This document shows, in pieces, positions 14,314 through 48,531 of a stretch of DNA of 64,000 nt. The stretch is from assembly GCF_055900595.2 (NCBI RefSeq), contig NZ_CM148325.1; one strand, 5' to 3'. The position numbers and the translations under genes are program-made. A model generated the notes under the pieces. The model was not told the origin of the DNA and ran no database searches. It was given only the letters and a program-made list of their open reading frames with translations. How positions within the stretch are numbered: the stretch's first letter is position 1; every line of letters starts with the position of its first letter.

Positions 14314-14326
14314 GGGGATCTCTCAG

Positions 14327-14335
14327 TACATCGCG
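14327..14335. repeat. IS10 target-site duplication, right copy (TACATCGCG)
   Basis: Identical to the 9-mer at 12989-12997. Confidence 0.9.
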
Positions 14336-31508: not shown

Positions 31509-32881
31509 CCTTGTGGGTCCTTACGCGTAATATTGACCGGAAGCCAGAGGGTGAACGTTGCACCTTTCCCCTCCTGGCTTACGACCTGAATTGTACCACC
31601 GTGTTGTTCAACAATATTATGCACAACCGCCAGCCCCAGTCCGGTGCCTTCGGCTTTGGTGGTGAAGTACGGGGTGAAGATGGCTTCAAGCTGATCCGCC
31701 GCAATTCCCTTACCGCTGTCGGTTACGCTTATTTTAACGCCTGCGCTGCTTTCGCTGGCCGTCACGCTAATCACGCCATGCTGACCAATCGCCTGAATAG
31801 CATTGAGATAGAGATTCAACAGGACCTGAGTCAGTCGGTCGGGATCGGCCTGTATCTCCGGCAATGCGTCGTTGGCGGTAAAGCGTAATTGGATCTCCCT
31901 ACTGTTTGCATCCTGGCTTACCAGTTGTAATGAGTGGTTAATCAGCGTGTTGAGATCCACCACCTGCAAAGCCAGATGCGTTGGCTTAACCAGCTCCAGC
32001 AGCTCGCTTACCACGCGGTTTAAACGGTCGGCTTCTTTCGCCATCACCTGCGCCAATTGATGTGCTTCTCCTCCTGCTGGTGCGCGTTCGGCAAAATATT
32101 TCGCCAGCCCTTTAATCGAGGAAAGAGGGTTACGGATTTCATGGGCGACGCCTGCGGCCAGATGTCCCAGCGCCACCAGCTTCTCTTTGCGCTTCATTTC
32201 ATCCTGTAACAGCTGGCGCGAGCGAAGATAGCGGCGATACCAGAAGAATGACAACACGCTTGCCAGCAAGACCGTCGCCAGGGCGAAGAGGATAATCAGG
32301 GTGTTTCTCTGCTCACGCTCTTCGGCACTCACAATGTTACTGGCGTCGAAAGCGATAAAAATTGCTTGTGGTGTCGTGGCATACTGCTGCATATGGCGCA
32401 TCCGGTGCATTCCAGCAGCAAACATCGGTTGAAACTGGCGATAAATTTCCAGAACAGGCTCGCCGTCTGCGCTATCGATCCGCCGCCACGCTTCTTCGTC
32501 TCCCGGATGTAACTGCTGCATTTCCTGCGGGGAATAAAGCTGTTTTCCCACCATGCCGGAGTTGCTATGCATCACGATTGTTCCTTGTTCATCCGTGACC
32601 GCAAACCAACGCACTCCTGGCTGCCCAGCCATTTCTTCCAGTAAAGCCTGCTGCTGCGCATGATGCATGCGCATCCCCATACCGACGCGCGAGCCGGATT
32701 CGAGAGCGCGGATAAGTACACTGCCTTTTTCCAGCAGAGTTTGTCTGGCGGCGGCAGTCTCGCGCCCATAATCGCGAATCACGGTCACCGCAAACAACCC
32801 CACCAGTCCAACAATGACTACGGGAAGGATCGCGCTTAACCATTTTGCTAAGGCATCTTTTGATCGCTGCATAAAACGCAT
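31505..32881 (-). CDS. zraS: sensor histidine kinase ZraS (HydH)
   Basis: Two transmembrane segments, H-box (HEIRNPL) and HATPase_c domain; start codon uncertain, an upstream non-ATG start is possible. Confidence 0.88.
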   Translation of the reverse strand: MRFMQRSKDALAKWLSAILPVVIVGLVGLFAVTVIRDYGRETAAARQTLLEKGSVLIRALESGSRVGMGMRMHHAQQQALLEEMAGQPGVRWFAVTDEQGTIVMHSNSGMVGKQLYSPQEMQQLHPGDEEAWRRIDSADGEPVLEIYRQFQPMFAAGMHRMRHMQQYATTPQAIFIAFDASNIVSAEEREQRNTLIILFALATVLLASVLSFFWYRRYLRSRQLLQDEMKRKEKLVALGHLAAGVAHEIRNPLSSIKGLAKYFAERAPAGGEAHQLAQVMAKEADRLNRVVSELLELVKPTHLALQVVDLNTLINHSLQLVSQDANSREIQLRFTANDALPEIQADPDRLTQVLLNLYLNAIQAIGQHGVISVTASESSAGVKISVTDSGKGIAADQLEAIFTPYFTTKAEGTGLGLAVVHNIVEQHGGTIQVVSQEGKGATFTLWLPVNITRKDPQG

Positions 32882-42165: not shown

Positions 42166-42936
42166 ATGTTACATATTGCGGACAAAACGTTTGATTCACA
42201 TCTGTTTACTGGCACCGGAAAATTCGCCTCTTCACAACTGATGGTGGAGTCTATTCGCGCTTCCGGCAGCCAACTGGTGACGCTGGCGATGAAACGTGTC
42301 GACTTGCGCCAGCACAACGACGCTATCCTCGAACCGCTTATCGCGGCGGGTGTGACCCTGCTGCCGAATACTTCCGGGGCGAAAACCGCGGAAGAAGCCA
42401 TTTTCGCCGCCCATCTGGCACGTGAAGCGTTAGGCACAAACTGGCTAAAATTAGAGATTCACCCTGACGCCCGCTGGCTGTTGCCCGATCCCATCGAAAC
42501 CCTGAAAGCCGCAGAAATGTTGGTGCAACAGGGATTTGTCGTGCTGCCTTACTGCGGTGCCGATCCAGTGTTGTGCAAACGTCTGGAGGAAGTGGGCTGT
42601 GCAGCAGTAATGCCGCTTGGCGCACCAATTGGCTCTAATCAAGGACTGGAAACCCGCGCCATGCTGGAGATTATTATCCAGCAAGCCACGGTTCCGGTGG
42701 TCGTTGATGCTGGCATTGGCGTTCCCAGCCATGCCGCGCAGGCGCTTGAAATGGGAGCCGATGCGGTGTTAGTGAATACGGCGATTGCCGTCGCTGACGA
42801 TCCCGTCAACATGGCGAAGGCATTTCGTCTGGCGGTAGACGCCGGCCTGCTGGCACGTCAGTCCGGGCCGGGCAGTCGCAGTCATTTTGCTCATGCCACT
42901 AGCCCGCTGACCGGATTTCTGGAGGCATCGGCATGA
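42166..42936 (+). CDS. thiG: thiazole synthase
   Basis: 256-aa product [20 protein letters not shown]... (ORF-track start trimmed by 37 codons). Confidence 0.92.
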
Positions 42937-44066
42937 AAACCTTCAGCGATCGCTGGCGACAACTGGACTGGGACGACATCCGCCTGCGAATCAACAGCAA
43001 AACGGCAGCTGACGTAGAGCGGGCACTCAATGTTTCGCAACTCACTCGCGACGATATGATGGCATTGCTATCACCTGCCGCCGGTGAATACCTGGAACCA
43101 CTGGCTCAACGGGCGCAGCGCCTGACCCGCCAGCGATTTGGCAACATCGTCAGCTTCTACGTCCCGCTTTATCTCTCTAATCTTTGCGCTAACGACTGCA
43201 CTTACTGCGGATTTTCCATGAGCAATCGCATCAAGCGTAAAACGCTGGATGAAGCGGATATCGCCAGGGAAAGCGCCGCTATCCGGGAGATGGGCTTTGA
43301 ACATCTATTGCTGGTCACTGGTGAACATCAGGCGAAAGTGGGGATGGATTACTTTCGTCGTCATCTCCCTGTCCTGCGTGAACAGTTCTCTTCACTACAG
43401 ATGGAAGTACAGCCACTGGCGGAAGCGGAATACGCCGAGTTAAAGCAACTTGGTCTGGATGGGGTGATGGTTTATCAGGAGACATATCACGAGGCGACAT
43501 ACGCCCACCATCATCTGAAAGGGAAAAAACAGGACTTCTTCTGGCGGCTGGAAACGCCGGATCGGCTGGGCCGTGCGGGGATAGATAAGATAGGCCTCGG
43601 CGCGCTAATCGGCCTTTCCGACAGCTGGCGCGTTGACTGCTATATGGTTGCCGAACATTTGCTATGGCTGCAACAACATTACTGGCAAAGCCGTTACTCT
43701 GTCTCCTTCCCGCGCCTGCGCCCGTGTACTGGCGGGATTGAGCCAGCGTCGATTATGGATGAACGCCAGTTAGTACAAACTATCTGCGCCTTCCGCCTAC
43801 TTGCGCCGGAGATTGAACTGTCACTCTCCACGCGGGAATCACCGTGGTTTCGCGATCGCGTTATTCCGCTGGCGATCAATAACGTCAGCGCCTTCTCGAA
43901 AACGCAACCAGGTGGTTATGCCGACAATCATCCCGAGCTGGAACAGTTCTCACCGCACGACGATCGCAGACCAGAAGCGGTGGCCGCCGCGTTAACCGCT
44001 CAGGGTTTGCAGCCGGTGTGGAAAGACTGGGACAGCTATCTGGGACGCGCCTCGCAAAGGACATGA
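42933..44066 (+). CDS. thiH: 2-iminoacetate synthase (radical SAM tyrosine lyase)
   Basis: 377-aa ORF with CxxxCxxC ([10 protein letters not shown]). Confidence 0.92.
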
Positions 44067-44116
44067 GACAAAATGTAAGAACGTAAATTTATTCCGAGCA
44101 GCTACGGAAGATGAAA

Positions 44117-44152
44117 AACGCAAGGTTGTTGAAAGCGTTGCGTTTTTTTATG
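44117..44152 (+). terminator. likely Rho-independent terminator of the thi operon
   Basis: ACGCAAGG...AAAGCGTTGCGT hairpin followed by TTTTTTT; coordinates within about 2 bp. Confidence 0.55.
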
Positions 44153-44261
44153 TTAGTACCGTCAGCAGGAATGTTGTCCAGGGCGAAAAGCTTCTTCCTC
44201 GTTTCGCCCTGCCTTTCTTAATATTTCCCATGAAGAATTTGCCCTCTGAATAACACCCATA

Positions 44262-44290
44262 AAAAAACCCGCCGAAGCGGGTTTTTACGT
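44262..44290 (-). terminator. rpoBC operon terminator
   Basis: AAAAACCCGCTTCGGCGGGTTTTTTT hairpin plus U-run on the minus strand just after the rpoC stop; coordinates within about 2 bp. Confidence 0.65.
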
Positions 44291-44307
44291 TATTTGCGGA
44301 TTAACGA

Positions 44308-47300
44308 TTACTCGTTATCAGAACCGCCCAGACCTGCGTTCAGCAGTTCTGCCAGGCTGGCAGATGCGTCTTCTGCAGTCACCTGCGGTGCAGCCGGAGC
44401 TTCACCTGCAGCACGGCGACGCATACGATCCTGGTGGTACGCGTAACCGGTACCTGCCGGGATCAGACGACCTACGATAACGTTCTCTTTCAGGCCGCGC
44501 AGTTCGTCGCGTTTGCCCGCAACGGCTGCTTCGGTCAGCACGCGAGTGGTCTCCTGGAACGATGCCGCGGAGATGAAGGACTCGGTTGCCAGAGACGCTT
44601 TGGTGATACCCAGCAGATCGCGGGAGTAAGTTGCACCCACTTTGCCGTTCGCTTCCAGTTCGCGGTTTGCGATCTTGACGCGAGAGTATTCAACCTGTTC
44701 GCCTTCCAGGAAGTCGGAGCTGCCCGCGTTAACGATGGTAGCTTTACGCAGCATCTGACGAACGATAACTTCGATGTGTTTATCGTTAATCTTAACGCCC
44801 TGCAGACGGTATACGTCCTGTACTTCGTTAACGATGTAACGAGTCACAGCATGAACACCACGCAGACGCAGAATGTCATGCGGCGCTTCCGGACCGTCGG
44901 AAATTACGTCACCACGTTCTACACGTTCACCTTCGAACACGTTGAGCTGACGCCATTTCGGAATCATCTCTTCGTACGGCTCGCTACCGTCTACCGGGGT
45001 GATAACCAGACGACGTTTACCTTTGGTTTCTTTACCGAAGGAAACCACACCGCTGATTTCAGCCAGGATTGCCGGCTCTTTCGGACGACGTGCTTCGAAC
45101 AGGTCCGCAACGCGTGGCAGACCACCGGTGATGTCCTTGGTACCGCCAGATTCTTGCGGAATACGCGCCAGGGTGTCACCGGAGCTGATCTGTACGCCAT
45201 CTTCCAGCTGAACAATCGCTTTACCCGGCAGGAAGTACTGCGCAGGCATGTCGGTACCCGGGATCAGAACGTCGTTACCCTGAGCATCAACGATTTTCAG
45301 TGCCGGACGCAGATCTTTACCACCTGCGGTACGTTCTGCGGAATCCAGAACCACCAGCGAAGACAGACCGGTCAATTCGTCGGTCTGACGAGTAATGGTC
45401 TGGCCGTCGATCATGTCAGTAAAGCGTACAAAACCGCTTACTTCGGTGATAACCGGCATGGTGTGCGGGTCCCAGTTTGCAACGGTCTCGCCGCCAGCAA
45501 CCTGTTCGCCATCGCCTTTCGCCAGTACTGCACCGTAAGGCACTTTATAGCTTTCTTTGGTACGACCGAATTCGTCGATCAATTTCAGTTCGGTGTTACG
45601 GGAAGTGATAACCAGTTTGCCGCTGGAGTTCACAACCGACTTCACGTTGCTAAGCTTGATGCTACCTTTGTTTTTCACCTGGATGCTGGATTCAGCAGCC
45701 GCACGAGATGCCGCACCACCGATGTGGAACGTACGCATGGTCAGCTGTGTACCCGGTTCACCGATGGACTGTGCCGCGATAACACCGATTGCTTCACCTT
45801 TGTTGATGATGTGGCCACGCGCCAGGTCACGACCGTAGCAGTGCGCACATACACCAAAGTCGGTGTCACAAGATACAACAGAACGTACTTTTACCGCGTC
45901 GACAGAGTTCTCTTCCAGCAGGTCACACCACTGTTCGTGCAGCAGCGTGTTGCGCGGAACGAGGATATCAGCAGTACCCGGCTTCAGAACGTCTTCAGCA
46001 GTTACACGACCCAGTACGCGATCGCGCAGCGGCTCTTTAACGTCACCACCTTCGATAACCGGAGTCATCATGATACCTTCATGAGTACCACAATCGTCTT
46101 CGGTAACCACCAGGTCCTGCGCCACGTCAACCAGACGACGAGTCAGGTAACCGGAGTTCGCCGTTTTCAGTGCGGTATCCGCCAGACCTTTACGAGCACC
46201 GTGGGTTGAGATGAAGTACTGGAGTACGTTCAGACCTTCACGGAAGTTCGCGGTGATTGGCGTTTCGATGATGGAGCCATCCGGCTTCGCCATCAGACCA
46301 CGCATACCCGCCAGCTGACGAATCTGTGCCGCAGAACCACGCGCACCGGAGTCGGCCATCATGTAGATGCTGTTGAAGGAAACCTGCTTCTCTTCCTGAC
46401 CGTCACGGTTAATAACGGTTTCAGTTTGCAGGTTATCCATCATCGCTTTGGATACACGATCGTTCGCCGCAGCCCAGATATCGATAACTTTGTTGTAGCG
46501 TTCGCCCGCAGTTACCAGACCAGACTGGAACTGCTCCTGAATCTCAGCAACTTCAGCTTCTGCCTCGGAGATGATTTCGTGTTTCTTCTCCGGGATGACC
46601 ATGTCATCGATACCAACAGATGCACCAGAACGCGCTGCATATGCAAAGCCGGTGTACATGATCTGGTCCGCAAAAATAACGGTCGGTTTCAGACCGAGAA
46701 TGCGGTAGCAGGTGTTCAGCATTTTGGAGATTGCTTTCTTACCCAGCGCCTGGTTGACGATGGAGTAAGGCAGACCTTTCGGTACAATCATCCACAGAAT
46801 GGCACGGCCAACGGTCGTATCTTTCAGGCTGGTTTTCGCTACTAATTCACCGTTAGCATCTTTTTCATACTCGGTGATACGCACTTTAACGCGCGCATGC
46901 AGAGAAGCCAGACCAGAGCGATACAGACGTTCTGCTTCTTTCGGGCCAGTCAGCACCATGCCTTCGCCTTTGGCGTTAACACAGTCGCGGGTCATGTAGT
47001 ACAGACCCAGTACAACGTCCTGAGACGGAACGATGATTGGTTCGCCGTTCGCCGGGGACAGGATGTTGTTGGTAGACATCATCAGCGCACGCGCTTCCAG
47101 CTGGGCTTCCAGCGTCAGCGGTACGTGAACAGCCATCTGGTCACCATCGAAGTCGGCGTTATATGCCGCACAAACCAGCGGGTGCAGCTGGATAGCTTTA
47201 CCTTCGATCAGTACCGGTTCAAATGCCTGGATACCCAGACGGTGCAGAGTCGGTGCACGGTTCAGCAGTACCGGGTGTTCGCGGATAACTTCGTCCAGGA

Positions 47301-48531
47301 TATCCCAAACGACAGCTTCTTCGCGCTCAACCATTTTCTTCGCAGCTTTAATGGTGGTAGCAAGACCACGCAGTTCCAGCTTGCCGTAGATGAACGGTTT
47401 GAACAGTTCCAGTGCCATTTTCTTCGGCAGACCGCACTGATGCAGACGCAGGTATGGACCTACGGTGATTACAGAACGACCGGAGTAGTCAACACGCTTA
47501 CCGAGCAGGTTCTGACGGAAACGACCCTGTTTACCTTTGATCATGTCGGCCAAAGATTTCAGAGGACGCTTGTTAGAACCAGTGATCGCACGACCGCGAC
47601 GACCGTTATCCAGCAGGGCGTCTACCGCTTCCTGCAGCATACGTTTTTCGTTACGTACGATGATGTCCGGCGCAGCCAGATCCAGCAGACGTTTCAGACG
47701 GTTGTTACGGTTAATGACGCGACGATACAGATCGTTCAGGTCAGAAGTCGCGAAACGACCACCATCCAGCGGAACCAGCGGACGCAGATCTGGCGGCAGT
47801 ACCGGCAGAACGGTCAGGATCATCCACTCTGGTTTGTTACCAGACTGAACGAACGCTTCCAGCAGTTTGATACGCTTGGTCAGCTTCTTACGCTTAGTTT
47901 CGGAGTTGGTTTCGTTCAGCTCTTCACGCAGCTGTTCGCACTCTTGCTCCAGATCCATGCTCTTCAGCAGAGCCTGGATTGCTTCCGCACCCATTTTCGC
48001 GTCGAATTCGTCACCGAACTCTTCCAGCGCGTCCAGATACTGCTCTTCAGTCAGGATCTGCTGACGCTCCAGGTTGGTCATACCGCCTTCGATAACCACA
48101 TAGGATTCGAAGTACAGTACGCGTTCGATATCGCGCAGCGGCATATCGAGCAGCAGACCGATACGGGACGGCAGTGATTTCAGGAACCAGATGTGCGCAG
48201 TCGGGGAAGCCAGTTCGATGTGGCCCATACGCTCACGACGTACTTTGGTCTGGGTCACTTCAACGCCGCACTTCTCACAGATGACGCCACGGTGTTTCAG
48301 GCGCTTGTACTTACCGCACAGGCACTCGTAATCTTTTACCGGCCCAAAGATACGGGCGCAGAAAAGGCCGTCACGTTCTGGTTTGAACGTACGGTAGTTG
48401 ATGGTTTCCGGCTTTTTAACTTCACCGAAAGACCATGAACGGATCATGTCTGGCGAAGCCAGAGCAATTTTGATCGCATCAAACTCTTCGGTTTTAGTCT
48501 GCGCTTTCAGAAACTTTAATAAATCTTTCAC
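44308..48531 (-). CDS. rpoC: RNA polymerase beta' subunit
   Basis: 1407-aa [24 protein letters not shown]..., NADFDGDQM active-site motif. Confidence 0.98.

Follow-up and report, generated by a model that had tools for sequence, protein, structure and literature searches.

The interval between thiH and rpoC raises the question of whether a gap of some 240 bp, at a place where the Escherichia coli K-12 map has a gene, marks a lesion or a natural form of the locus. The window, that is, the whole stretch of 64,000 nucleotides analysed here, is E. coli-like and collinear with positions 4169718-4233489 of MG1655. In it, thiH (42933-44066, plus strand), an ORF of 377 aa and the last gene of the thiCEFSGH operon, converges with rpoC (44308-48531, minus strand), an ORF of 1407 aa encoding the β′ subunit of RNA polymerase. 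The two stop codons are separated by 241 bp (44067-44307), which confirms the gap of about 240 bp reported in the original prediction. The assignment of thiH matches the RefSeq annotation of an identical locus. The ThiH protein of the window is 96.8% identical in amino acids to that of K-12 and 99.7% identical to ThiH proteins named E. fergusonii by NCBI, and its rpoC shares 98.6% nucleotide identity with the K-12 gene.

The original prediction also placed a K-12 gene of about 180 codons, yjaZ (htrC), next to rpoC. This is correct, with yjaZ (b3989) encoding 179 aa. In MG1655, rpoC ends at 4189573 and thiH at 4190735, leaving a spacer of 1161 bp that contains yjaZ (4189786-4190325) and, directly after it on the other strand, sroH (b4691, 4190327-4190487). 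Alignment with the K-12 region bears out the suspected absence of yjaZ: 947 bp of K-12 sequence, comprising yjaZ, its promoter region and sroH, face 27 bp in the window. Two genes, and not one, are therefore missing relative to K-12, since sroH, which had gone unmentioned, lies wholly inside the K-12-only segment. This segment of about 930-947 bp encodes only yjaZ and sroH and has a G+C content of 41.5%, compared with 55-56% in the flanking genes. On the thiH side, the first 162 bp or so of the spacer are 97% identical to K-12. The alignments were carried out with BLAST and with a pairwise method using cheap gap extension, as MAFFT alignment of whole spacers misplaced the rpoC-side flank. The counterpart of the K-12-only segment in the window amounts to 27 bp that are unalignable in the pairwise comparison, and to 14 bp when several species are aligned together.

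Searches with the missing genes gave the same result. A tblastn search with YjaZ against the whole window returned nothing better than E = 0.43. No member of the YjaZ/HtrC family (NCBIfam NF007263; Pfam PF27200) was found in the spacer, where no ORF exceeds 36 aa; as a positive control, K-12 YjaZ scored 430 bits against NF007263. For sroH (Rfam RF00372, gathering score 80 bits), no match was obtained in window positions 43000-45500 even at E <= 1, and the K-12 sroH locus scored 201 bits as a positive control.

What the spacer does contain is a set of hairpins. It was first described as holding no ORF longer than about 27 codons and two terminator-like hairpins, one per strand. No yjaZ-sized ORF is indeed present, but the longest frame spans 36 codons (44111-44221, plus strand), followed by frames of 32 (44162-44260, minus strand) and 27 codons (44148-44231, minus strand). 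All three overlap hairpins and lack a usable ribosome-binding site. The 36-codon frame was considered as a small protein and rejected: it spans a terminator hairpin, its sole Shine-Dalgarno-like motif lies directly against the ATG, and the conserved block that it covers is invariant at all three codon positions, which is a non-coding pattern. No sigma-70-like promoter was found in 43500-45000. The spacer has three hairpins, and not two.

The thi-operon intrinsic terminator (44114-44149, plus strand) consists of a core at about 44119-44142 preceded by an A-run 5′ of the stem and followed by UUUUUUU at 44143-44149. Its predicted fold reaches -17 kcal/mol (z -4.45), a value that none of 200 shuffled sequences equalled. 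It is found in all the Escherichia alleles examined, with 3 of 33 columns variable; Salmonella has an analogous hairpin and U-run in its place, but with a different sequence. The intrinsic terminator of rpoC, and thus of the rplKAJL-rpoBC operon, was located by a terminator scan at 44261-44286 on the minus strand (AAAAAAA CCCGC CGAA GCGGG TTTTT). Its CCCGC/GCGGG stem is followed by seven U residues on the minus strand and folds on both strands. The stem lies between an A-run and a T-run, a symmetry that could in principle allow bidirectional action. Over its last 52 bp the spacer matches K-12 perfectly (100%), and only 2 of these 52 columns vary across Escherichia. Judged by sequence, both elements combine the stable G+C-rich hairpin and the immediate U-run of an intrinsic terminator, and the hairpins of the spacer are predicted to terminate transcription in vivo. 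The spacer would thus be a convergent transcription-end zone made only of transcription-end signals, in which the thi operon would stop at its hairpin and U-run and the rplKAJL-rpoBC operon at the symmetric rpoC hairpin.

As a separate observation, an exact 24-nt string of the rpoC terminator, AACCCGCCGAAGCGGGTTTTTACG, recurs in a few unrelated bacteria and, in Citrobacter gillenii, downstream of eno. A scan of a genome collection with this string gave six loci, of which one, E69, was informative. The Citrobacter match was discarded as a thiH-rpoC locus because it is the eno terminator, an unrelated site.

The third hairpin lies between the two terminators, in a 56-nt block (44166-44221, strand undefined). 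This block carries the inverted repeat CAGGGCGAAA-N13-TTTCGCCCTG at 44179-44211, with a 10-bp stem and a 13-nt loop, which is predicted to fold on both strands (-15 kcal/mol, z -3.5). Among eight short alleles, drawn from E. coli (B2, F-like and W), the window lineage, E. albertii and E. ruysiae, the block shows no variable column, and the part of it that was compared is also identical in the long alleles of K-12, O157, a D-like strain and E69. By contrast, variability reaches about 11% in the rest of the spacer outside the junction, 48% in the junction and 33% at third codon positions of thiH. The invariance of the block amid variable surroundings indicates that selection constrains it as nucleic acid. 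It has no match in Rfam and no annotation in K-12, and Salmonella lacks it. Furthermore, a test for REP- or BIME-like repetition within the 64-kb window found a single copy of the inverted repeat with up to three mismatches allowed. The simplest guess is that the block may serve as a second, tandem or back-up terminator, or as a 3′-end stabiliser, for thi transcripts, and the thi operon would then end in a functional element that has so far gone unannotated.

How common the short form is was assessed in complete E. coli genomes. The short junction (44180-44300) is contiguous in 1630 of 5426 genomes, counted as those covering at least 80% of the junction query. DNA of yjaZ was detected in 3738 of the 5426 by megablast and in 3742 by a sensitive blastn able to detect about 65-70% identity, leaving 1684 without any. 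The long allele is carried by K-12 and by about 69% of E. coli, and yjaZ is missing from about 31% of complete genomes. The short allele was sampled in mutually unrelated backgrounds: in a B2 strain (arpA-negative, yjaA-positive), in an F-like strain lacking both genes and in E. coli W, and the long allele in K-12, O157:H7 and a D-like strain (arpA-positive, yjaA-negative).

These counts bear on two further readings. A bare difference in length from K-12 could also arise if a recent strain-specific deletion, or a collapse in the assembly, had removed yjaZ. This has next to no probability: a 1-kb region of the window is 100% identical in an independent complete genome, the junction occurs in 1630 complete genomes, the 241-bp spacer recurs in other species, and the junction has diverged between lineages, which makes it old. 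Alternatively, yjaZ could have moved elsewhere in the chromosome or onto a plasmid, and divergent plasmid genes of the yjaZ family do exist in E. coli and its relatives; the additional matches of the sensitive search correspond to nine divergent plasmid copies with 60-80% identity. Relocation is nevertheless very improbable. The 64-kb window has no YjaZ match, and yjaZ-like DNA of any kind is found in only four genomes more than the chromosomal gene, so a relocated copy is unlikely. Moreover, the short and long counts add up to 5368 of 5426 genomes, consistent with mutual exclusion, with about 58 genomes in other states, among them the alleles of 15A23CPO013 and HH45 described below. Between the deletion and the lineage-specific absence that the original prediction had left side by side, lineage-specific absence fits better, given the 1630 genomes and the presence of the short form in E. 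albertii and E. ruysiae. The short gap is an ordinary, widespread presence/absence difference in accessory genes, and not a lesion.

Some long alleles are themselves damaged. In O157:H7 SS52, a 71-bp deletion yields a shortened 'HtrC' of 147 aa, and the urine isolate 15A23CPO013 has a 232-bp deletion inside yjaZ, annotated as frameshifted, which represents a decay independent of that in O157:H7.

The window itself belongs to a rare, deep-branching lineage that carries both arpA and yjaA. Its relatives comprise eight RefSeq genomes named 'E. coli' that are 100% identical and about six to eight at around 98-98.5%, with the rest at or below about 96%. Local introgression as the source of this divergence was rejected, since the closest genome repeats this rare-lineage pattern at a second locus, 2 Mb distant. 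At 0.28, the thiH Ks between the window lineage and K-12 is on a par with that of E. albertii. Over 21 kb, the window is nevertheless 98.9% identical to a complete genome deposited as E. fergusonii (CP079891.1), and proteins identical to those of the window are named 'MULTISPECIES [Escherichia]'. With E. coli, E. fergusonii and MULTISPECIES names in mixed use, species labels for this lineage are inconsistent.

Other differences from K-12 were noted along the window. At 12997-14327, between arpA and aceK, a 1.33-kb insertion encodes a 402-aa DDE_Tnp_1 transposase, and its flanks overlap by 9 bp in the manner of a target duplication. From its size, the 9-bp duplication and the protein, it looks like IS10. 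The insertion is absent from the otherwise identical Z0117EC0005, as judged by a 1.3-kb coordinate offset. The adjacent arpA product (10868-13045, 725 aa) combines an N-terminal ShET2 enterotoxin domain (Toxin_15, E 4e-95) with ankyrin repeats; it is named a ShET2/EspL2-family type III effector or EspL4 in RefSeq and an 'ankyrin-like regulator' in K-12. A coverage count over 2200-12900 of the window was set aside as an arpA census because arpA makes up only 19% of that query. In zraS, about 285 bp (32305-32590) are too diverged from K-12 for megablast and differ in length, the gene measuring 1377 bp in B2 and F-like strains and 1398 bp in K-12.

The short spacer is also found in other Escherichia species. 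The distance between thiH and rpoC is 241 bp in contigs of E. albertii and E. ruysiae (with ThiH so named by NCBI), and all three hairpins recur in their spacers together with the junction motif. Loci deposited as E. fergusonii have a 241-bp spacer as well, but given their 98.9% identity with the window across 21 kb they were rejected as an outgroup and treated as the window's own lineage. Beyond E. coli, the comparison within the genus covers E. albertii, E. ruysiae, these loci and E69. The long allele is found at the same site in E69, a GTDB species representative deposited as 'E. coli E69', whose rpoC is 98.9% identical to that of E. ruysiae.

Both alleles are old. Between K-12 and E69, yjaZ has a Ks of 0.28 with a Ka/Ks of 0.18, and thiH has a Ks of 0.31 between K-12 and E. 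ruysiae. As the two Ks values are similar, the long allele must date back at least to the time when E. coli and the E. ruysiae-like lineage separated. The cassette is accordingly functional, inherited over long periods and under purifying selection. Across the same pair of genomes, sroH is 98.8% identical and yjaZ 91.3%, and sroH is therefore under much stronger constraint than the adjacent yjaZ. The short junction, in turn, is present in E. albertii at species-level divergence, which makes the short allele at least as old as the E. albertii split. In the Escherichia phylogeny, E. albertii lies outside the group formed by E. coli and the cryptic clades. With the short allele in this outer position, a short ancestral form and a single gain of the cassette is the more parsimonious course.

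The short spacer is a natural allele without yjaZ and sroH and probably the ancestral empty site. On this account, the cassette of YjaZ (179 aa) and SroH would have been acquired once by an early Escherichia lineage, replacing a 14-bp stretch. Both alleles would then have persisted, or have been exchanged by homologous recombination, within and between species. The window comes from a rare, deep-branching lineage carrying the empty form. Several observations weigh against a gain: the long allele of E69 at the same site requires, in any scenario, a polymorphism spanning species or a transfer between them; the sequence shows neither terminal repeats nor a clean target-site duplication as signs of an insertion; and the long allele is itself ancient and under purifying selection.

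The site of the cassette in K-12-type genomes corresponds to a variable junction segment in the window (44223-44255, strand undefined), in which 16 of 33 columns vary among short alleles. The left flank ends in ..CCCAT (44227-44231) and the right flank starts with CTGAATAAC (44246); the 14 bp between them (44232-44245, GAAGAATTTGCCCT) have no counterpart at either junction of the long allele. The short alleles of B2, F-like strains, W, E. albertii, E. ruysiae and the window have in common the motif ..TTAATATTTCC(C/G)(A/G)TGAAGA(A/C)TTTGCCCTCTGAATAAC.., and the window shows all the features that define a short allele, namely a spacer of 239-241 bp, the invariant hairpin block and the junction ..GAAGA(A/C)TTTGCCCT|CTGAAT... 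The B2 allele is 96% identical to the window in the junction segment, and short alleles differ from one another by point differences only. The left junction is distributed as a mosaic across short and long alleles. It reads TTAATATTT in E. albertii, E. ruysiae, B2 and the window, and TTAAAAATT in all long alleles as well as in the F-like and W short alleles, which have TTAAAAATTCCGT at the left junction, like the long alleles.

The K-12-only segment has neither terminal inverted repeats nor a clean target-site duplication as the footprint of an insertion sequence or transposon, and no transposase is encoded in the cassette, which holds only yjaZ and sroH. The only flanking direct repeat, TTAAGGAATTT / TTACGGAATTT (10 of 11 positions), is offset from the cassette boundaries, and AT-rich repeats containing TTAA flank the cassette in two inconsistent registers, 910 and 920 bp apart. 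The junction is blurred: what remains of it is 57-65% similar to either cassette end, and shuffled sequence gives 55.6 +/- 5.3%. The junction repeats were therefore rejected as a guide to the direction of change and no conclusion was drawn from them, as the registers are inconsistent and the similarity falls within the shuffled range.

The opposite direction deserves consideration at this point. The common ancestor of E. coli and its near relatives could have had yjaZ and sroH at this site, and a single ancient deletion, retaining some 10-14 nt of yjaZ, could have produced a short allele that went on to spread or survive in many lineages, that of the window among them; variants of this reading involve two breakpoints, or one deletion with a small retained fragment. 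Such a loss finds some encouragement in the similarity between the short junction and the interior of yjaZ (CTTTGCCCTC / AAGACTTTGCCCTC). A 10-nt junction string, CTTTGCCCTC in B2 and TTTGCCCTC in the window, also occurs inside yjaZ, a match with an estimated chance of about 0.04-0.14, and the 14 bp of the short junction could accordingly be what is left of a deleted yjaZ. E. albertii reads TTCGACTCTC at this position. Yet the rest of the junction is no more cassette-like than shuffled sequence. One strain, HH45 (NZ_CP116411.1, 4510966-4511269), seems to bridge the two forms. Its 304-bp spacer consists of a short-type junction, 45 bp of yjaZ interior joined at the 10-mer CTTTGCCCTC, and then about 29-35 nt that match neither the K-12 nor the window spacer. 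This allele joins a short-type junction to yjaZ at the shared 10-mer, as a loss intermediate might, but no other of the 5426 genomes has this form, and the yjaZ piece in it does not differ at all (100% identity) from modern K-12, so that it looks like a recent microhomology-mediated event and not an old intermediate. The age of the long allele, matching the divergence of E. coli from the E. ruysiae-like lineage, and its purifying selection also speak for an ancestral cassette, and yjaZ is known to decay, having done so independently and recently through the 71-bp deletion in O157:H7 and the 232-bp deletion in 15A23CPO013. Against this stand the short alleles of E. albertii and E. ruysiae, the absence of yjaZ from the junction of every other genus examined, the low G+C content of the cassette and the plasmid or mobile setting of the YjaZ family elsewhere. 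Taken together, an ancient secondary loss is less likely, and an ancestral short site with a later gain is the preferred reading.

The setting of the family was examined at several loci. YjaZ relatives are patchily distributed in Raoultella, Pantoea, Salmonella, Enterobacter, Aeromonas and cyanobacteria. At the loci inspected, their neighbours are Tn3, IS1, resolvase and TraJ genes, in plasmid-like or mobile contexts, or else RdgC and HigBA, on an E. fergusonii contig of 88 kb.

That many E. coli genomes lack yjaZ can already be seen in public annotation, and a search of the literature on yjaZ, htrC and sroH found nothing on a presence/absence polymorphism. Only three aspects of this locus are mildly unusual: both alleles are very old, they occur in more than one species, and the hairpin block is invariant. 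Tentatively, and with some doubt, yjaZ-sroH may be a very old presence/absence polymorphism that segregates both in E. coli and in the E. ruysiae-like lineage, next to a functional 56-nt block. If so, long-term balancing or niche-dependent selection, or repeated exchange between species, would have acted on the yjaZ/sroH pair.

On these counts, yjaZ and sroH are accessory and not core genes of E. coli, and they are also absent from at least two sister species. Although annotated in K-12, yjaZ is uncharacterised; its 'heat-shock' designation as htrC is now retracted (PMC11551758). The rpoC-htrC (yjaZ) gap has served as a 'featureless' or neutral site for tagging and insertion (PMC7160681). The difference described here matters little in itself, and it provides context for assigning a function to yjaZ and sroH or for choosing the rpoC-yjaZ gap as an insertion site.

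Finally, the locus can be compared with its counterparts in K-12 and in other enteric bacteria. It resembles the K-12 locus in its flanking genes, their orientation, the thi terminator, the hairpin block and the rpoC terminator. Salmonella has the same convergent layout of thiH and rpoC, but there a gene for an SseK/NleB-like effector, and no yjaZ, lies between the terminators, whereas the window has no cargo. In another enteric bacterium, a csp gene and genes for PTS IIB/IIA are located between thiH and rpoC, again without yjaZ. A contig of Klebsiella michiganensis, which does not reach rpoC, has GGDEF, PTS and dcuB genes after thiH, and no yjaZ. On the sequence comparisons made here, the junction between thiH and rpoC looks like a place where enteric bacteria have repeatedly integrated cargo specific to each lineage.
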